Below, piece after piece: positions 4,614 to 59,049 of a stretch of DNA of 64,000 bases. Every line of letters starts with the position of its first letter. The stretch's first letter is position 1. The stretch is from a virus (taxonomy: Duplodnaviria; Caudoviricetes), in the IMG/VR virus record IMGVR_UViG_2862963355_000001, positions 4,660 to 68,659 of that record. One strand, written 5' to 3'. The position numbers were made by a program, and so were the translations under genes. The notes below the pieces were generated by a model, which was given only the letters and a program-made list of their open reading frames with translations, made no database searches and was not told where the DNA came from.

Positions 4614-5096
4614 TCAGTGGGTGCGCAGGCCGCCGTGTGCTCTGGCGCGGCGCAGGAAGGCGATCCAGCGCCTCCACGTCGGGTCACCAACGGGCATCTC
4701 GGCGATCTCCACCTGCGGGTGGGCCTCGTAGGTGGCCAGTGCGGCGCTGATCTCGGCGACGGTGACGAGGAAGCCGTCGCTCCAGGCGAGCTTGTACGCC
4801 GGGATCCCGGTGGGATCGGGCTCGGCGGCGTCCGTGACTGCCTGGTACGCGGCCCGGTATTCGGCGATGCGGGTCGCAGTGGCCTGGTCGGGCTTGGCGC
4901 CGGGTTGAAAGTCCTCACGCTTCAACCCGTAGGCGGCAAGCGTCGGGTAGGACGGGATGGGAAGGTCCACGAGCATCCCGAAATTGCTCATCGCGTCGAG
5001 TGTGCGTGGCATGGCGGTAATCGCGAACCGGAAATAGTTTTCGTCACCTTCGGCGGGCTTGCCGTCAGGGGTCTGGATGTAGATGTCGTATCCCAC
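4614..5096 (-). CDS. Hypothetical phage protein
   Basis: 160-aa ORF preceded by the ACCTCTTGGAG start-associated motif. Confidence 0.7.
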   Translation of the reverse strand: MGYDIYIQTPDGKPAEGDENYFRFAITAMPRTLDAMSNFGMLVDLPIPSYPTLAAYGLKREDFQPGAKPDQATATRIAEYRAAYQAVTDAAEPDPTGIPAYKLAWSDGFLVTVAEISAALATYEAHPQVEIAEMPVGDPTWRRWIAFLRRARAHGGLRTH

Positions 5097-49044: not shown

Positions 49045-50583
49045 TCAGCGGCGCCCGTCGAAGCGGTCGTCGTCGATGTCGGATGGCAGGGTGTCCAGTT
49101 GATCCGGGTCGGCTAGTTCGGTCAGCCCATGCACCGCGGCGTCCATCCGGTCCGGGCTATCCATTCCCTCGACCCAGGTGACCATCTGGTCCTCCAGTTC
49201 GCTGTATTCGCCGACGTGGTGGACGAGCTGCTGTTCGTAAAGCTGTGCCACCGGTGCCGCGCGCAGGCGCTTGCCCACCTTGGCAGTGACTTCCAGGATC
49301 ATCGGCATGAGCAGTCCCTTGGTGACGCCTTCGCGGCGTAGTTGCTCCCATGCCTGCGTGACGATCTGGCGGGCCATGTCCCCGCCGTAGTTCTTCTCCA
49401 CCACGATGGCGTCGGCCTTGAGTTCGAGGGCGAGTCGGCAGGCGGCAAGGCCCCAGTCGTTGGCGCCCATGGAGCCTGACCGGTCGGCGAGGACGTAGAG
49501 CTGCCGGTCGAAGTCCCGGCCCACGCCGATGACGCCGGTCTCGTCGCCGACGGTGGACTCTCCGCCGGCGGGGTCGACTGCCACGACGATGCGCGCCATG
49601 TCGATGCCGGAGAACTGGACGGCGTTGATGCGGGCGGTGTCGATCCACCCGCGCTTCCACACGCCTCCCTCGGCCGGGCGGGGCTTTTGCATGTAGAGGG
49701 CGCCCCAGACCCGTTCGCCGACACGCTTACGGGTTCGGGCGTGGTGGGCTGCGTCGAATCGCTGGGGCCACAGCGGCTCGCCGGGTGCCCGGCCGAGCGG
49801 GTCATCGGGGCTGTCGGCAAGGGCCGGGAGGTCGATGACGCGCCATGCGTCTCGCTCGGTGGCGAGGATGCGCCCGGCGAGATCGTCCTCGTGCCAGCGC
49901 GTCTGGATCAGGCAGATGGCTCCGGTGGGTTCGAGTCGGGTCTGTATTACGGAGGTCCACCAGTCCCAGGCGCGTTTGCGCATGGTCGGCGAGTCCGCAT
50001 CGGCCATGTCCTTGACCGGGTCGTCCACGATGGCGATGTGGGCGCCGCGTCCGGTGAGGCCGCCTCCGATGCCCGCAGCGAGGAGCCCGCCTTCGCCGCC
50101 GACGATGTCGAAGCGGTTGGCGGCCTTGCTGCCGGCCGCGAGCTGGATGCCGAGGTCGTCGCCCCAGGTGTAGATGGCGTCCCTGATCCATCGGCCGTGG
50201 TCGTCGGCCAGGTCGGCGGAGTAGCTGGCGATCATCATGCGGTGGCCGGGGTTGCGCCTCAGGTACCAGAGCGGAGCCCAGCGGGAGGCGCGTCGGCTCT
50301 TGCCGTGCCGCGGGGGCATCGTGAGCATGACCCGGTCGCACCGCCCCTCGGCCATGTCGATGAACGCGCGGTCGATCAGGTCCAGGTGCGGTGCCTGCAT
50401 CTCTCGCCCGCCGGTGAGGACGGCGGCGAGCGCGCCTGGCGAGCGGTCCATGGCCAACTGACGCTCCGCGCGTGCCAGCTCGGCCCGTAGCGTCGGGGAG
50501 GCGGACCGGGCGATGGCACGGCGTTGGGCTGGCGGCAGCGTCTTGTAGTGGGCGATGACGCTCTCGTTGTCCCGGGGCCTCAT
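49045..50583 (-). CDS. terL: Terminase large subunit
   Basis: PPRHGKS Walker A, IVDDP Walker B, VDPA nuclease motif, PDRMDA. Confidence 0.95.
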   Translation of the reverse strand: MRPRDNESVIAHYKTLPPAQRRAIARSASPTLRAELARAERQLAMDRSPGALAAVLTGGREMQAPHLDLIDRAFIDMAEGRCDRVMLTMPPRHGKSRRASRWAPLWYLRRNPGHRMMIASYSADLADDHGRWIRDAIYTWGDDLGIQLAAGSKAANRFDIVGGEGGLLAAGIGGGLTGRGAHIAIVDDPVKDMADADSPTMRKRAWDWWTSVIQTRLEPTGAICLIQTRWHEDDLAGRILATERDAWRVIDLPALADSPDDPLGRAPGEPLWPQRFDAAHHARTRKRVGERVWGALYMQKPRPAEGGVWKRGWIDTARINAVQFSGIDMARIVVAVDPAGGESTVGDETGVIGVGRDFDRQLYVLADRSGSMGANDWGLAACRLALELKADAIVVEKNYGGDMARQIVTQAWEQLRREGVTKGLLMPMILEVTAKVGKRLRAAPVAQLYEQQLVHHVGEYSELEDQMVTWVEGMDSPDRMDAAVHGLTELADPDQLDTLPSDIDDDRFDGRR

Positions 50584-51131
50584 TCGGCGTCCGGGTCGGT
50601 CAGGGCGATCAGCGCGTCGAGTTCGTCGGCGGTGACGTTCTCGATCTGCACCGGCCCGCCGTCGGGGCCGGACAGCTCCGTCCTGACGGGCATGTCGAGG
50701 CCGAGCAGGCGGGCGCGCCGCTCCATGATCCGCAGGGTTCGGTCGATGGCCGCGAGATCCTGGTCCCGGACGGCCTTCTTGTAGGCGACGAAGAACAGCC
50801 GGTCGAGCCGGTCGGCTTCAAGCTCGCGCAGCTCGTCAACGTCGTCGTTTAGCTCGGCGCGGCGGTCGGCGAGTGCTGTGCGGACGTCCCGGCAGGCGGC
50901 GTGGATCAGGGCCTCGTCGGTGGGCGGGTCCTGGTTCTTGCGGTACCGCTCGATGCCGTAGCCCTGGGGGTAGGCGATGCCGTCAGAGTTCGCGGTCGGG
51001 TCGGCAGCCAGCTTGCGGGCGATCGTCAGCCAGTCCACGCCGGCGAGTCGTAGGTCGATGGCGTCCGAGCGGCGGCGCGCGATGGCCGCACGCGCGGCTT
51101 TGTCGGGGCGTCCCACGGCGGGGTCCTCCAC
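50580..51131 (-). CDS. Terminase small subunit-like HTH protein
   Basis: Coupled upstream of TerL; LRIMERRARLLGLD...ELSGPDGGP. Confidence 0.75.
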   Translation of the reverse strand: MEDPAVGRPDKAARAAIARRRSDAIDLRLAGVDWLTIARKLAADPTANSDGIAYPQGYGIERYRKNQDPPTDEALIHAACRDVRTALADRRAELNDDVDELRELEADRLDRLFFVAYKKAVRDQDLAAIDRTLRIMERRARLLGLDMPVRTELSGPDGGPVQIENVTADELDALIALTDPDAE

Positions 51132-51549
51132 AGCTCGGGTGCGCCCCCGCGCCCGTCACCATGATCGCACTTGGCATCAGTTGCGGGACTCCCCCGTACG
51201 CTCTGCTGCAGTTCGCGCGGACTCCCGCCAACTCGCCCCGGATTGGGTACAGTTCTGTACGCAGCGGGGTCTGAGCCATCAGGTCCCCGCTGTCTACGAT
51301 GACAAGTGCGTTTGCCGGGAGCCTGGAACCGACGTCCCAGGTAGGCCGGGGCTTGCCGCCCAGGCCGTGTTCCGCACAGAGCGATGCTGTAAGGAGAGCC
51401 CGTCTCAGGTTGCGCTAGCACCGCACCATCTGAGTTCTGAGCGTCGGCAGGACCTCAGCTGACCACACGCATGTGCGTGGTGGTCGAGCTGAGGTCTGCC
51501 TATCGGCCACCTTGGTTCGACCGCCCGACAGGGAATGGGATTTGAACCG

Positions 51550-51714
51550 GTGGACTCCGCCATCCTGTGGCTTCTTGGCGCCTCGGGTGTACTGGCCGTG
51601 GCCTTGTTCGTGATCAAGGGACTCCTCGACCAGGTGCCCGACATCGCCGAGTCTTGGCATCGAGCCAAGCACGCTGTCCGCGGTCAGGACAGGTCCGACG
51701 GCGACGATTCGTGA
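51550..51714 (+). CDS. Small single-TM protein (54 aa)
   Basis: Manual ORF MDSAILWLLGASGVLAVALFVIKGLLDQVPD...; opposite strand to the operon. Confidence 0.45.
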   Translation: MDSAILWLLGASGVLAVALFVIKGLLDQVPDIAESWHRAKHAVRGQDRSDGDDS

Positions 51715-51753: not shown

Positions 51754-52266
51754 TCAGATCAGCGACATCTGCTCACCCTCTTCGGGCTTCTGGGGGCGTA
51801 CATACTCAGGCGGCGCGTCGGGCGCATCGCGCTCGGTGCGCAGCCACCAAGCGAACTGGTAGTTGCGGCAGGTGCGAAAGCGGACCGAGTTCCGACGCGG
51901 CTCTTCCGCAGGAATGCTGTGCTCGCCCCATCCAGTGATGGGGCGAGCATTACCGAGGCGCACGTGCAGACCCGGCACAAGGGCGGGCCCCTCCCACTCT
52001 TCTCCGGGTGCGCCTTCGAATGCCAGGTGGGCGTTCTGGCTCCAGTTCCAGGGGTTGGGCAGCGCGCACAGGTACCAGGCCAGCGGCGGGTTGTTCGGCG
52101 GGAGTTCAACGGTCTGGTGCCGGCGACGGACATCCACTCGGGGACGCTCGGGCTGGCCGAAGCTGCGCAGGCAGTGCTGGTCGAGAGCTACGTGCCGCAC
52201 GCCGGCCAGCCACATGATGTGGTACCGACTTCGCGATTCAATTTGGACCTGTATTCGCTGCAACAC
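51754..52266 (-). CDS. Unknown Trp/His/Cys-rich protein in the ParB-methyltransferase cassette
   Basis: 170-aa ORF starting 19 nt after the ParB-MTase stop. Confidence 0.65.
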   Translation of the reverse strand: MLQRIQVQIESRSRYHIMWLAGVRHVALDQHCLRSFGQPERPRVDVRRRHQTVELPPNNPPLAWYLCALPNPWNWSQNAHLAFEGAPGEEWEGPALVPGLHVRLGNARPITGWGEHSIPAEEPRRNSVRFRTCRNYQFAWWLRTERDAPDAPPEYVRPQKPEEGEQMSLI

Positions 52267-52284
52267 GCGCTCCCCACACTCTTC

Positions 52285-53730
52285 TCAATTGGCGAGAGAT
52301 TCATTTCTCTCTACTACCAATTTTATCAAATTTCCCACCAATTCCAGATGCCTGTCATGGCGGAAGCCATTCGGATAAGGCATATTGAATTCCTCTTCGA
52401 ATGCCTTCTCGTATTCCTCTTTGGGGAGCGGGATCGGGCGGCGACATGTGGCTTTGAGGTTGGACCCGCTGAGGTCGCTGACCTGCACGTCCTTGAAGTA
52501 CCGGCGGAGCAGCGGCTCCAGCGTTTCAGGCGTGTGGAAGCGGAGCTTCTGCCACTTCCCCTTGACGAAGTTCATCTCCACGTTGTCTTCGTCGAGGAAG
52601 CTCATCTTCGTCGTCGCCGTCTGGGAGGTGACGCGTTTGGCCTGCTCGTCGCGCAGTTCGCGGGCCAGGTTGCGCGTGCCGAGGCACACCACTCCGTCGG
52701 CGGCGCACAGAGCGTTGACCGTGGTCATGACCCAGTGCTGGTAGTCGAGCGAGGTGGTGGCGTTGATGACGGAGTCGAGGACGACGACGTCGTACAGGCC
52801 GTTCGCCTGGATGTCCTTGTCGATGTCGCGGATCATGCCGACGACGGCCCGGATGTCGACGGCGTACGAGCCGTCCCGGCAGCGGTAGGGCTCGTAGTCG
52901 TGGATGTTGAAGCCCTTTGCGCGCAGGTGCTTGGCGTAGTCGCCGTATCCGGCGCCGAAGTCCACGACGCGGTGCGTGGGCTTCAGCCAAGGGGTGACGA
53001 GCTGGTCCCATGTTTCGGAGCCGTAGGCGAGCTTCCCCGCCTTGGCCTTGGAGGAGAACTGCCTGAGCCTCTTGGGCTGGACGATGTGCTGGTTCCAGAC
53101 GGGTGCCTTGTTCTCGATGGCGGTCCAGTCGTAGACGCCGTACTCACCAGTGAGATCGGCGTGGAGCTGGGCGGCGTCGGCGGAGGACACAGTCCAGGCA
53201 AGGACGTCGAAGCGCGAGAACGAGGCGACGACGGCGTACTCGGCGTTGAGGACGATGCGGCCCTGGTCATCGATGACGACGCTGCCCCAGGGGCCATGGC
53301 CGGCGGTCATATGGCCGATGGCGTTGACGAAGGAGAGGTTCTTGCGTTCGGTGACGCGGATGGATTGCCACGGTATCCAGGACCAGGCGCCGATCTCGCC
53401 GGGCTCGGCGTAGACGACGCTGGCCTCGGTCTCCACGCGGTTGTGGAGGAGGTTGAATTGGATCTCGTCCTGCAACCTGACCTTGGTGCCGAGCATGACT
53501 GCGGGGGTGTGGGTGAGGCCGATGGCCTTGAGTCCCTTGGTCCTCTGGTGACCTGCGACAAGGGTGCCGTCCGCGTTGAGGATGACCGGCTTGACGACGC
53601 CGTGGCGGCGCAGCGATGCCTGGAGCCGGACGAAGGCCGTCTCGCTGAGGCGGCGCGGGTTGTAGTCGGCGGGGCGCAGTTGGTCGAGCGGGTACGCCTC
53701 GTGGAAGGTGGTGGTGGGTGCCTTGCTCAT
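52285..53730 (-). CDS. ParB/Srx-fold (duplicated) fused to a class I SAM-dependent methyltransferase
   Basis: YNPR...VAGHQR ParB_N; degenerate second repeat; VVDFGAGYG SAM motif, YDVVVLDSVIN. Confidence 0.8.
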   Translation of the reverse strand: MSKAPTTTFHEAYPLDQLRPADYNPRRLSETAFVRLQASLRRHGVVKPVILNADGTLVAGHQRTKGLKAIGLTHTPAVMLGTKVRLQDEIQFNLLHNRVETEASVVYAEPGEIGAWSWIPWQSIRVTERKNLSFVNAIGHMTAGHGPWGSVVIDDQGRIVLNAEYAVVASFSRFDVLAWTVSSADAAQLHADLTGEYGVYDWTAIENKAPVWNQHIVQPKRLRQFSSKAKAGKLAYGSETWDQLVTPWLKPTHRVVDFGAGYGDYAKHLRAKGFNIHDYEPYRCRDGSYAVDIRAVVGMIRDIDKDIQANGLYDVVVLDSVINATTSLDYQHWVMTTVNALCAADGVVCLGTRNLARELRDEQAKRVTSQTATTKMSFLDEDNVEMNFVKGKWQKLRFHTPETLEPLLRRYFKDVQVSDLSGSNLKATCRRPIPLPKEEYEKAFEEEFNMPYPNGFRHDRHLELVGNLIKLVVERNESLAN

Positions 53731-54389
53731 GCGGGTTCGCCCTCCTGGTGGGCTTCCTGAAGGACGTGCCAGCCGAAGCCGAGGTCACTGTTGGTGTCGT
53801 CGACGAACTTCGTGTAGATGGCGTTGAGGGCTTCGACTTCTTCGGAGGTGATCCGCACTCGCTTGGACTCCCACTGGAGGTAGCCCCACTGGAGGTAGTC
53901 GACCGTGGCGGCAGCTCCGGTGCCCGCGCCGTCCGATGTCAGCTCCAGTGTCTCGGGGAGTGAGGTGTCGTCCAGGAGTCGGTCGACGCTCTCGCGGTCG
54001 TATCCCGTACCCGCGAGGTCGGGGATCTCGGAGAGGACTTCGGCGAGCAGGGCGCTGTCGTACCCGGCGAGGTCGTTGGTCCGGTTGTCGACGATGACGA
54101 TGCGGGCAGCCGCATCGTCATCGACATCGACCCAGGTGACGGCGATCTGGTTCCAGCCGAGCTGCTGGGCAGCGGCGTGTGTGTGGTTGCCTGCCAGGAT
54201 CTCGTTGAGCCGGCCGGTGAACGTGCCCTTGTTGACGACGATGGCCCTGTACTGGCCGTTGACGGTCAGCGATTCCGCGATGGAGGGGATGTCGCCGCTG
54301 CGGGGGTTTCGGTGGTACGGCGTGAGATCCCCGATGGGGACGGCGAGCGGCAGGAGCTGTTCGGGGATATTGGCGGGCGTCGGGGTCAC
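53727..54389 (-). CDS. ParB/Srx N-terminal domain protein
   Basis: NPRSGD..IAESL..NGQYRAIVV...ILAGNHT..AA..LGW; ATGA-coupled to the next gene. Confidence 0.85.
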   Translation of the reverse strand: MTPTPANIPEQLLPLAVPIGDLTPYHRNPRSGDIPSIAESLTVNGQYRAIVVNKGTFTGRLNEILAGNHTHAAAQQLGWNQIAVTWVDVDDDAAARIVIVDNRTNDLAGYDSALLAEVLSEIPDLAGTGYDRESVDRLLDDTSLPETLELTSDGAGTGAAATVDYLQWGYLQWESKRVRITSEEVEALNAIYTKFVDDTNSDLGFGWHVLQEAHQEGEPA

Positions 54390-54481: not shown

Positions 54482-54655
54482 TTACCCGCGACCTGAGCGG
54501 TTCGACCCGGCCCCGGCCGTCGCAAGCTTCTCCTGTTGGGCAGCGAGCCGCTCCCGCAGTCGCTCAAGCTCGGCCTCTGAGGCACCGAGCTGCGCCTTGT
54601 ACTTGATGTACTCCGGATCTACCTCGTCGACCGGAGGAAGGTCAACTCTACGCAT
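54482..54655 (-). CDS. Small coiled-coil protein (57 aa)
   Basis: Manual ORF MRRVDLPPVDEVDPEYIKYKAQLGASEAELERLRERLAAQQEKL...; overlaps the upstream stop. Confidence 0.45.
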   Translation of the reverse strand: MRRVDLPPVDEVDPEYIKYKAQLGASEAELERLRERLAAQQEKLATAGAGSNRSGRG

Positions 54656-55562
54656 CTCGCCCTCCTCGACGCACGAGTTCCTGGATGTGACCAGCTGCAG
54701 TGTTCAATGCACCTGCAATCGGACCATTGAGATCAACATCAACTGGCCGCCCGCGGCGCGGCCTGACGTCTGCCGAGAGTACACCGACAACGTGGCGGTT
54801 TCTAGGATCTCGAATGGGCCAGGTCACGAGGTAATGATAGTGCTCGACATCCCGGAACTCGCTTAGAGTCATCCTCCATCGCTCATTGTTATCAATGCGG
54901 TTCCACAGCCAGGAATCGACCCTGGCGCGCCAGCGCGTCGACCCCGTGATCTTTCTCCCCCGGGAAGATCGCGCGAACCACTGGCCCATCGGAGATTTCA
55001 CAATTCTCCCTATTCTCGACTTGGGGTCAACAACCCCTGCGGCCCGCTTCGATTCCCAGTCCACACGCAGGTCGGCACAGATCTGCTGCCAATTTTCAGC
55101 AAGTGCTTCCTTCCTCGCCCAAGTGGTCCCTATCGGCCCGTGATCGTAGCGATAAAATGCTGCACCCAAATTTTGATCATCTCGATCAATGCCAATGAAT
55201 GAAACCGGACGAAGGCGGGCTCTAAGCCAAGTTGGCCATCGGCTTGCCACGTGCACGAAGACGCCAGATCTGCGCCAGTCGGCATTCGCATGCTCCACTA
55301 GCCCAAGGAGCACGACCCCCATCTCCTGCCGCATTCGCGCATCTCTTTGGCGAGCCTCCCGCACTCTCTTTGCAAGCCCCATCTGCCGCCAGAAGGGTTC
55401 AAAAGCTGTAGCCGCCAACCCGAGAGCAAGCGTCACCATGAGAATCGCTTGGTGCTGTGGCCACCAGCCCTCTGGGTAATTCGCAAGCGCCAGCATTCCG
55501 GCACTCAGGAAAACACCCACCAGAATGTTCTTGACTGCGGTATACGACACCAGAGAATTCAC
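54648..55562 (-). CDS. Two-TM membrane protein with a soluble GAF-like C-terminal region (moron)
   Basis: Two N-terminal TMs; GPIGTTW...LVTWPI...VGVLSAD GAF-like pattern; visibly AT-richer DNA. Confidence 0.55.
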   Translation of the reverse strand: MNSLVSYTAVKNILVGVFLSAGMLALANYPEGWWPQHQAILMVTLALGLAATAFEPFWRQMGLAKRVREARQRDARMRQEMGVVLLGLVEHANADWRRSGVFVHVASRWPTWLRARLRPVSFIGIDRDDQNLGAAFYRYDHGPIGTTWARKEALAENWQQICADLRVDWESKRAAGVVDPKSRIGRIVKSPMGQWFARSSRGRKITGSTRWRARVDSWLWNRIDNNERWRMTLSEFRDVEHYHYLVTWPIRDPRNRHVVGVLSADVRPRRGRPVDVDLNGPIAGALNTAAGHIQELVRRGGRDA

Positions 55563-57853: not shown

Positions 57854-58999
57854 TCAGGCCGCGATGGCAACCGGCTCGGCCTCGGCGTCGCCCGCCTCCG
57901 GTTCCGGGGCGCTCTCCTGCTCCGTGTCGTCAGCCGCCTCGGCCTGCGGGGCGGTGGACCCCGCCTCCGCGTCCGTCTCCGAAGTAGCGTCGGCGGTCGG
58001 CTCGGCGGCGGGCTCCAGGCTGGCGAGCGCGGCATCGGCCTCCGCGACCAGGTCGGGGGCAGCCGCCGCGGGGTTGACCATGATCTCGCTGGCGTCGGCG
58101 TGCGCCTTAGCTTGACGGAGCTGGAAGCGGGCCTTCTGGACGAAGTTGGCGACCCGGTCCATCTGCTCCAGCCGCTTGCCCACCTGCCCCTCCAGGGCGC
58201 GGGCCAGCTCCATCGGGTCGGCCTTGCCGATGCTGTCCAGCAGCTCGCACATACGCTCGATCTCGTCGAGGTCGCTCTGGGTCTTGGCCTGTGTCCGGCT
58301 GCGCTGGGCCTTCTCCTCGGGTGTCATCTCCTTGACGTCGACCATGGAGTCCTGCTTGGCGGCCTTCTCCTGCTTGCGCATGGCGTAGGCGATGTGGACG
58401 AGCTGGTTGTCGCTCTTGTCGCCCTTCTTCCAGTCCTCGAAGACAGCCTTCTGGTTGTCCCGGGACAGGGCGGCGATCTGGACGGCGGCCTGAGTGCCGA
58501 TGTGCCCGAGGTCGACAGCCGTCTGGATCTCGGGGCGCAGGGCGAGCAGTGCCAGGCGCTGGTTGACGTACTGGACCGACTTGGAGAAGGTCTTCGCGAC
58601 GCTGGGGACTTGGTCGGGGTCGCCGTCGTACTCGTCATCCAGGACCCGCTTGAAGCCGCGCGCCTCCTCCAGCGGGAGCATGTCCTCGCGGTTCAGGTTC
58701 TCGGCCATAGCCTTCTTGAAGGACTCCATGTAGCTGATCTCGGCGTCGCCCTCGGCCAGGAGGATCTTCGTCTCGATGGTGATGTTGCCCGCCAGCCCGT
58801 TGGCGCGGAACCGGCGCTCCCCAGCGACCAGCTCGTACCCGCCCTCCTCGACCTTGCGGACGACGATCGGCTGGAGGAGGCCGTGCTCCTTGATCGAGTC
58901 GGCCAGCTCAGACAGGGCCTCCTCACTGAAGGTCTCGCGGGGCTGGTTCGGGTTGCGTCGGATCTGACGCATCTTCAGGGTCGCGTACTTGTGCGGCAT
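57854..58999 (-). CDS. ParB/RepB/Spo0J family protein
   Basis: NPNQPRETF..L.EL..SI...GLLQPIVVR...VAGERRFRA, ENLNRED, HTH. Confidence 0.92.
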   Translation of the reverse strand: MPHKYATLKMRQIRRNPNQPRETFSEEALSELADSIKEHGLLQPIVVRKVEEGGYELVAGERRFRANGLAGNITIETKILLAEGDAEISYMESFKKAMAENLNREDMLPLEEARGFKRVLDDEYDGDPDQVPSVAKTFSKSVQYVNQRLALLALRPEIQTAVDLGHIGTQAAVQIAALSRDNQKAVFEDWKKGDKSDNQLVHIAYAMRKQEKAAKQDSMVDVKEMTPEEKAQRSRTQAKTQSDLDEIERMCELLDSIGKADPMELARALEGQVGKRLEQMDRVANFVQKARFQLRQAKAHADASEIMVNPAAAAPDLVAEADAALASLEPAAEPTADATSETDAEAGSTAPQAEAADDTEQESAPEPEAGDAEAEPVAIAA

Positions 59000-59049
59000 T
59001 TGGGGCTCCAAGAGGTCGGTGGGGGCTTCTCCCTCCCCCTTCCTTGCGG

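Follow-up and report, generated by a model that had tools for sequence, protein, structure and literature searches.

Which molecule does a phage methyltransferase act on when ParB folds precede it in the same polypeptide, and what do the genes beside it contribute? The question is raised by three minus-strand genes of a Streptomyces prophage, found in a 64,000-nt stretch of DNA (the window: positions 4,660 to 68,659 of IMG/VR virus record IMGVR_UViG_2862963355_000001, part of contig 17 of an 8.3-Mb genome). The genes encode a small stand-alone ParB-fold protein; a fusion of an intact ParB fold, a degenerate second ParB-like fold and a class I S-adenosylmethionine (SAM) methyltransferase domain; and a third protein of 170 amino acids (aa) (Table 1). 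A preliminary description, made from the sequence alone, had read them as a single cassette and a candidate system for packaging-coupled DNA modification. All three genes are real and lie where it had placed them, and together they form a self-contained, widely distributed module found in phages of many bacterial groups. The likeliest function of this module, which we propose tentatively, is that of a ParB-loaded DNA-modification complex that would write a non-canonical methyl mark on phage DNA.

The evidence for a module comes from linkage in both directions. Using a hidden Markov model (HMM) of the 170-aa family, we found the third gene next to the fusion gene in 62 of the 76 viral loci fetched via the fusion protein (E 1e-30 to 1e-73); the loci bearing it had GC contents of 0.29-0.71, and at five loci the third gene was on the opposite strand yet adjacent. 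Conversely, the methyltransferase was present in 73 of 79 loci fetched via the third protein; of the six loci without it, five are truncated by the end of the contig. Of 65 viral loci that could be evaluated, 63 had a paralogue of the small ParB directly upstream of the fusion gene, and the remaining two had one within about 300 nt. When 200 other Streptomyces species were surveyed, ten carried the fusion gene, each with the third gene within about 45 nt, and one further genome held only a fragment of the third gene. Beyond the cassette, no gene family recurred in the clustered loci (51 loci in 31 locus groups) except the terminases.

In a tree of 92 fusion proteins, half of which were fetched via the third gene and thus carry it by construction, the cases lacking the third gene were scattered and forced at least five changes (Yersinia and Bacteroides phages were among these cases). 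This pattern suggests that the third gene was there ancestrally and has been lost sporadically. This linkage across loci bears out the single cassette that had been proposed from one sequence. In the literature searched, both the three-gene module and a partner domain with links to type IV restriction (see below) are undescribed.

The fusion protein itself belongs to a family that has already been catalogued. It aligned with PHROG 5475 ('unknown function') at E 5.8e-71, with residues 10-457 falling on positions 3-441 of the 458-position profile, and is a full-length, collinear member of this ParB-CTPase + Methyltransf_23 family. Its Pfam scores were 38.9 bits for Methyltransf_23 (cut-off 27) and 26.1 bits for ParB_N, just below the cut-off of 26.3, and of 42 aligned homologues all matched ParB_N and 41 matched Methyltransf_23. 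The family comprises at least 190 clusters at 50% identity with E <=1e-30, and lengths among the 150 best listed clusters were mostly 450-500 aa. Bacteroides, Yersinia, Escherichia and Brochothrix phages carry members, and viral contigs that encode others range in GC content from 0.26 to 0.71.

According to a recent study by Hocher, Le and co-workers (PNAS 2025, PMC12704722), Methyltransf_23 (PF13489) is among the commonest fusion partners of the ParB-CTPase fold in phages. Such fusions are reported there to be enriched in prophages and phages, the domain is termed a 'predicted DNA methyltransferase', and the function of the class is given as unknown, one phage member and one bacterial member having been expressed; related ParB-SAM-methyltransferase fusions are reported to bind ATP. 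The architecture is thus not new, a point that the preliminary description overlooked, and in the literature searched ParB was mentioned together with PF13489 nowhere besides this study. Among the retrieved homologues, no Rosetta-stone fusion joined the fusion protein to the small ParB or to the third protein. In another Streptomyces genome (G077 contig 3, 30735-32148), the fusion gene is broken up into a pair of overlapping parts (profile positions 2-267 and 262-465), which is probably a frameshifted copy; the third gene still adjoins it.

That the fusion begins with an intact ParB_N domain, as first described, agrees with the uniform ParB_N matches of its homologues and with its predicted structure. 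In the AlphaFold model (predicted local distance difference test, pLDDT, 89; predicted template modelling score 0.85), residues 2-101 superposed on CTPgammaS-bound, CDP-bound and apo ParB N domains with Z-scores of 12.2-12.8 and root-mean-square deviations (rmsd) of 1.9-2.3 A (VIA-align). The best superposition was on CTPgammaS-bound ParB (Z 12.8, rmsd 1.9 A over 91 residues), and the nucleotide-pocket residues R26, R63 and N93 were invariant in the 42 homologues. The middle domain (residues 102-236) has the same strand and helix order as ParB_N in the model, is without the NPR and GxxR motifs and gave no significant direct HMM match. An earlier hhalign comparison of the two ParB copies, based on 42 sequences only, reached E 0.048, and a deeper alignment was needed: with 135 sequences, residues 28-73 aligned with residues 131-175 at E 2.4e-5 (probability 75%), pairing the two domains exactly as the preliminary description had written them. 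The middle domain also aligned with the small-ParB family (hhalign, E 5.8e-4).

The small ParB matched PHROG 723 ('ParB-like partition protein') at E 1.4e-50, and scored 24.4 bits for ParB_N against the Pfam cut-off of 26.3. Its reported ATGA coupling to the fusion gene is present: the fusion ATG overlaps the TGA of the small-ParB gene, with AGGAGG upstream. In canonical ParB, the arginine of box II binds nucleotide phosphates; this box reads AGH(T/A/G)R in distant members of the small-ParB family versus AGNHT, around residues 75-80 of the window's protein, in Streptomycetaceae, where the usual arginine is absent. HTH_ParB (Pfam) matched neither the 220-aa nor the 481-aa protein, while it did match the 385-aa canonical ParB encoded elsewhere in the window. 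In this respect neither the small ParB nor the fusion is like the canonical ParB of ParABS systems, in which HTH_ParB follows ParB_N.

The open reading frame (ORF) of the third protein has a GTG start, a GGGGAG ribosome-binding site and about 100 homologues, and is thus a real gene. Its product had been described as a Trp/His/Cys-rich unknown; it is so composed (8 Trp, 7 His, 3 Cys) and has no known relative, but it is also a conserved core partner, which that description missed. All three Cys are invariant, and 32 diverse members share W19, H31, C32, Y65, C67, N78, H80, A82, C133, R134 and N135. Judging from this conservation, the three Cys and two invariant His probably form a metal site or an active site. 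The model (pLDDT 93) is a beta-sandwich with a C-terminal helix.

Searches for relatives of the third protein yielded little beyond its own family. A word-indexed search had limited it to Streptomycetaceae, a distribution overturned by the HMM search. There were no relatives in Pfam, PHROGs, PADLOC or PDB sequences and no usable match in the ESM Atlas; Foldseek against the PDB returned nothing at E 0.001 or better, a wide VIA-align search returned only C2-like sandwiches (best Z 5.2, below background), and a BFVD search returned only two members, both uncharacterised and of the same family. Isoelectric points gave no useful information. In an actinobacterial sub-clade (L036 6486-7652, L037 6486-7148, L038 6474-7151), the third protein (221-389 aa) bears a long proline-rich C-terminal extension.

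The methyltransferase domain carries DFGAG, YEP and LDSVxN motifs along with a conserved C-terminal EFNMxYP..H..H helix, and both D257-F-G-x-G261 (DFGAGYG in the window) and L318-D-S-V-x-N323 were invariant across the 42 homologues, which matched the Pfam families Methyltransf_23, _11, _31 and _12. The DFGAGYG and DSVIN motifs were noted from the start, the latter as a non-canonical replacement of DPPY. DSVIN does occupy the DPPY position, but not as a mutated form of it: enzymes of the Methyltransf_11/23 type ordinarily have this motif at strand 4. The domain is indeed non-canonical as a DNA amino-methyltransferase: motif IV, (D/N/S)PP(Y/F/W), is absent after strand 4, where the invariant L318-D-S-V-I-N323 stands. 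C5-cytosine features were likewise lacking, with no PF00145 match and no Pro-Cys motif after strand 4. The fold does not point to one substrate, but it speaks against both the amino-methyltransferase and the C5 mechanisms.

Evidence bearing on the substrate comes instead from the company that the third domain keeps outside the phage module. A profile search for longer proteins found this domain in three fused forms, all of which keep the invariant residues. In the first, it is joined to radical SAM domains of the PA0069/Rv2578c/'mobile pair B' type (NCBIfam E 1e-18 to 1e-21), which we take to belong to the SplB-like 'DNA photolyase' group. Two metagenome contigs of GC 0.65 (L162 1447-2949, L163 4969-6471) encode such proteins of 494-501 aa, whose radical SAM domain has an unusual C-x6-C-x3-C cluster motif; the neighbours of these two genes gave no family match. 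In the second form, the third domain begins a Methanobrevibacter protein of 412 aa, the remainder of which resembles a NucS_C endonuclease plus DUF5655 (Pfam 1.6e-6; an Atlas score of 0.94 is a lead only). Its gene directly follows McrB-like and McrC genes in a defence island (L166 3353-8239). In the third form, the domain is the C terminus of a Termitinemataceae protein.

A second Methanobrevibacter genome (L168 1171-7447) has a stand-alone third domain among McrC, McrB-like, GmrSD, EEP nuclease and PLD-helicase genes. The ParB-methyltransferase was absent from all loci of fused forms and archaeal islands examined, and the fused proteins P0364, P0365 and P0367 had no match in the PDB. Nucleases, McrBC and radical SAM enzymes are typical company of DNA-binding or modification-reading domains, and their presence makes the strongest case, albeit an indirect one, for DNA as the target of the phage module. 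By analogy, these contexts point to a DNA-binding, possibly mark-reading role for the third domain.

The module may be pictured as a 'writer' complex that would modify DNA and be made ahead of packaging. The nucleotide-pocket residues R26, R63 and N93 are retained in a single ParB fold, which is predicted to bind a nucleoside triphosphate (NTP) and to load or hold the enzyme on phage DNA, while the pseudo-ParB domain and the small ParB would serve as its partner faces, replacing the canonical ParB homodimer. With SAM as the methyl donor, the class I domain would then methylate DNA at a position that is neither adenine N6 nor cytosine N4 or C5. The third protein may be the DNA-binding or target-recognising (possibly mark-reading) subunit, and the mark would shield phage DNA from host nucleases. 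Two features leave the DNA-directed role given in the preliminary description as the best reading: the module has three ParB folds, and its partner domain is found repeatedly alongside DNA enzymes and type IV restriction. A further-reaching version, which we consider possible though doubtful, is that the third domain is a new modification-reader or target-recognition domain common to phage writers, a McrBC-linked NucS-like nuclease and SplB-type radical SAM proteins. The module would in that case write a methyl mark other than N6-methyladenine, N4-methylcytosine or 5-methylcytosine (e.g., on a ring nitrogen), and hosts would have captured the phage reader to attack marked DNA.

The cofactor is likely plain SAM rather than carboxy-SAM because the genome is without CmoA. 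Neither the genome, which is 100% complete, nor five records of related phages matched TIGR00740 (CmoA), with controls matching in 8 of 14 genomes, and no CmoA-sized family recurred in the 51 clustered loci (31 locus groups). The same searches make transfer of a carboxymethyl group from carboxy-SAM, in place of a methyl group, extremely unlikely.

Several observations weigh against a DNA-writing complex. No DNA-methyltransferase Pfam family was among the matches listed for the 42 homologues (E up to 0.1). Foldseek ranked the nucleoside diphosphate (NDP)-sugar C3-methyltransferases TcaB9, KijD1 and MtmC best (E about 5e-7), and VIA-align ranked METTL6 (Z 13.6), toxoflavin N-methyltransferase (13.3), Trm9 (12.7) and GNMT (12.2), these top VIA-align enzymes being effectively tied at 12-16% identity. 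The cultured relatives, in Yersinia and Bacteroides phages, have no third gene within 5 kb; the small ParB of Streptomycetaceae is without the box II arginine (GxxR to AGNHT); and the prophage also encodes canonical C5 and N6 (NPPF) methyltransferases. Finally, the fusion evidence for the third domain comes from four lineages, and the two McrBC-island loci belong to related Methanobrevibacter genomes. DNA methyltransferase structures were absent from the top 50 structural rows (Foldseek, VIA-align), and the modelled domain comes closer to class I enzymes that act on small molecules or tRNA than to amino- or C5-methyltransferases of DNA.

These structural neighbours could indicate a free nucleotide or other small molecule as the substrate. 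The ParB/Srx fold would then bind an NTP, either as substrate or as an allosteric ligand, in the manner of sulfiredoxin and SerK, and the enzyme would modify a nucleotide pool or immune signal, or consume SAM, as a form of anti-defence. Consistent with this idea, small-molecule N-, C- and O-methyltransferases, among them C-methyltransferases of nucleotide sugars, are nearest in structure, LDSVxN is a motif of the small-molecule type, and ParB-CTPase folds are reported to bind ATP, CTP or GTP and in some cases to be enzymes (PMC12704722). We nonetheless consider a small-molecule substrate unlikely: three ParB folds are hard to square with an enzyme for a soluble metabolite, the genomic slot is the same as that of ParB-N6 DNA methyltransferases, and the partner domain, in tight linkage with the enzyme, is elsewhere fused to nucleases or SplB-type radical SAM domains and found in type IV restriction islands.

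Alternatively, the enzyme might methylate RNA (tRNA or rRNA) or protein, either retuning host translation or modifying a protein of the virion or of packaging; the ParB folds would serve as NTP-dependent switches. The absence of a DNA-methyltransferase motif would suit this explanation, as would the presence of METTL6 (tRNA 3-methylcytidine), Trm9 and CmoM among the top VIA-align matches. However, those matches tie with many unrelated class I enzymes at low identity, no RNA-binding domain was detected in family searches of the module proteins and the 42 homologues, and all known contexts of the partner domain are DNA-centred, leaving an RNA or protein target decidedly unlikely.

The genomic setting bears on a further claim, that the cassette is coupled to packaging. 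It had been placed directly upstream of the terminases; in fact, a gap holding a convergent ORF and a strong hairpin intervenes (Table 1). The membrane ORF occupies the same place in seven close prophage relatives (37-72% identity) and is therefore probably a real small gene (moron), and the hairpin (-45.5 kcal/mol, z -7.2, 10-nt perfect outer arms), the sequence of which is unconserved in related loci, may be a bidirectional terminator. Across phages, the large terminases that follow the module belong to at least four unrelated families (Terminase_6N, GpA, Terminase_3 and TerL_ATPase), and in Streptococcus phage Javan29 an ordinary ParB-N6 methyltransferase sits in the same pre-terS slot. Given the separation from terS, the varied terminases and the shared slot, the association with terminases appears to be positional (the end of the early region) rather than mechanistic, and the 'packaging-coupled' label finds no support.

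Table 1. Positions in the window of the module, its parts and the neighbouring features, in minus-strand gene order
Feature	Position	Strand	Remarks
Canonical ParB with helix-turn-helix (HTH)	57854-59011	-	ParB_N 88.9 bits and HTH_ParB; first in minus-strand gene order
Two small ORFs	Between canonical ParB and NPPF methyltransferase		
NPPF-type methyltransferase, 312 aa	56257-57195	-	Canonical NPPF motif
Two-transmembrane protein	54648-55562	-	Between NPPF methyltransferase and cassette
Small stand-alone ParB-fold protein, 220 aa	53727-54389	-	PHROG 723, ParB_N
Fusion protein (ParB + pseudo-ParB + Methyltransf_23), 481 aa	52285-53730	-	
Fusion residues 1-101, intact ParB-CTPase fold	53428-53730	-	DYNPR, AGHQR, box III-like E-x2-FNLxHN; VIA-align
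Fusion residues 102-236, degenerate second ParB-like fold	53023-53427	-	Strand/helix order in the model; hhalign
Fusion residues 237-481 plus stop codon, class I SAM methyltransferase domain	52285-53022	-	Methyltransf_23
Third core gene, 170 aa	51754-52266	-	Beta-sandwich with C-terminal helix
Gap, 620 bp	Between third gene and TerS-like gene		Contains opposite-strand 59-aa ORF and hairpin
59-aa ORF	51535-51714	+	One predicted membrane helix; convergent to cassette, before terS
Strong hairpin	51435-51510		Between cassette and terS
TerS-like gene	50580-51131	-	Assigned by position, size and overlap with terL
TerL	49045-50583	-	Terminase_6N/6C; PHROG 38 at E 4e-106

A mechanistic role in packaging or DNA processing would have the ParB-like domains act as NTP-regulated nickases or pac/cos binders that aid the terminase, while the methyltransferase domain would bind SAM for regulation or as a vestige. 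The module does stand just ahead of terS/terL in most phages, and Bce_0392, a ParB-methyltransferase fusion, is reported to nick DNA (cited in PMC5512222). Such an accessory is nevertheless very unlikely in view of the four or more unrelated terminase families and the convergent gene and hairpin that split the module from terS in the window. Moreover, the SAM-binding and strand-4 residues are all invariant in more than 40 homologues, suggesting that the methyltransferase domain is under selection as an enzyme.

Several neighbours of the module merit brief comment. The sole PHROG match of the TerS-like gene was PHROG 645, labelled 'RNase E', a label that looks mis-annotated. The canonical NPPF motif of the 312-aa methyltransferase indicates that the prophage owns an ordinary amino-methyltransferase besides the cassette; in PHROGs this protein best matched domains within giant polyvalent proteins of phages or plasmids, and PADLOC 'mad2' was a further match. 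The canonical ParB sits inside the integrated prophage. Megablast of the region against phages gave no match, and neither did two loci of enterobacterial GC against E. coli genomes.

Phage DNA modifications drive the restriction arms race and supply enzymes for biotechnology, and ParB-Methyltransf_23 proteins are among the commonest phage ParB fusions. New here is the 170-aa protein as a core partner: a confidently modelled beta-sandwich with invariant Cys and His that is fused elsewhere to a nuclease or radical SAM domain. A catalogue entry thereby becomes experimentally addressable, with a fixed three-gene set, a catalytic domain that carries no DNA-methyltransferase motif, and a partner domain found in type IV restriction islands. 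Should the mark turn out to be non-canonical, the gain would be twofold: a phage DNA modification and a reader domain, both new.

Comparison with known systems brings out both parallels and differences. Like the type IV readers (SRA, EVE and the McrB N-terminal domain), the third domain is found joined to a nuclease of the PD-(D/E)XK type next to McrBC, and beside GmrSD; it has no sequence or fold similarity to those readers, its best PDB matches being the C2-like sandwiches noted above. In the CmoA-CmoX-CmoY system (PMC12783734), ParBc proteins accompany CmoX, which is a C5-methyltransferase homologue, whereas the module's methyltransferase is without C5 features and its genome without CmoA.

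Closer parallels lie among ParB-methyltransferase fusions. The ParB-N6/N4 methyltransferase fusions (PHROG 498; B. cereus Bce_0392, cited in PMC5512222; Streptococcus Javan phages) similarly place an N-terminal ParB on a SAM enzyme, have homologous ParB parts and occupy the last early-region slot before terS. They differ in carrying a PF01555 domain with (D/N/S)PP(Y/F), whereas the module's fusion has Methyltransf_23 with LDSVxN, a pseudo-ParB domain and two obligate partner genes. The fusions of PMC12704722 (PHROG 5475) share both architecture and family with ours and are likewise (pro)phage-borne; in its accessible part, that study treats the fusion protein alone, and the degenerate second ParB, the small ParB paralogue and the Cys/His third protein are not described.

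The phage DNA thymine dioxygenase 5mYOX offers a functional parallel: it is activated by a ParB-like protein, and mutations in the ParB nucleotide pocket left this activating role in place (PNAS 2026, PMC13229309). The 5mYOX enzyme is a TET/JBP dioxygenase, whereas that of the module is a Methyltransf_23 protein; Tet_JBP (PF12851) had no match in the genome, although the control genomes gave none either. Both systems pair a stand-alone ParB-like protein lacking an HTH with a phage DNA-modifying enzyme, putatively so in the case of the module, and the 5mYOX precedent demonstrates that ParB partnerships with phage DNA-modifying enzymes exist.

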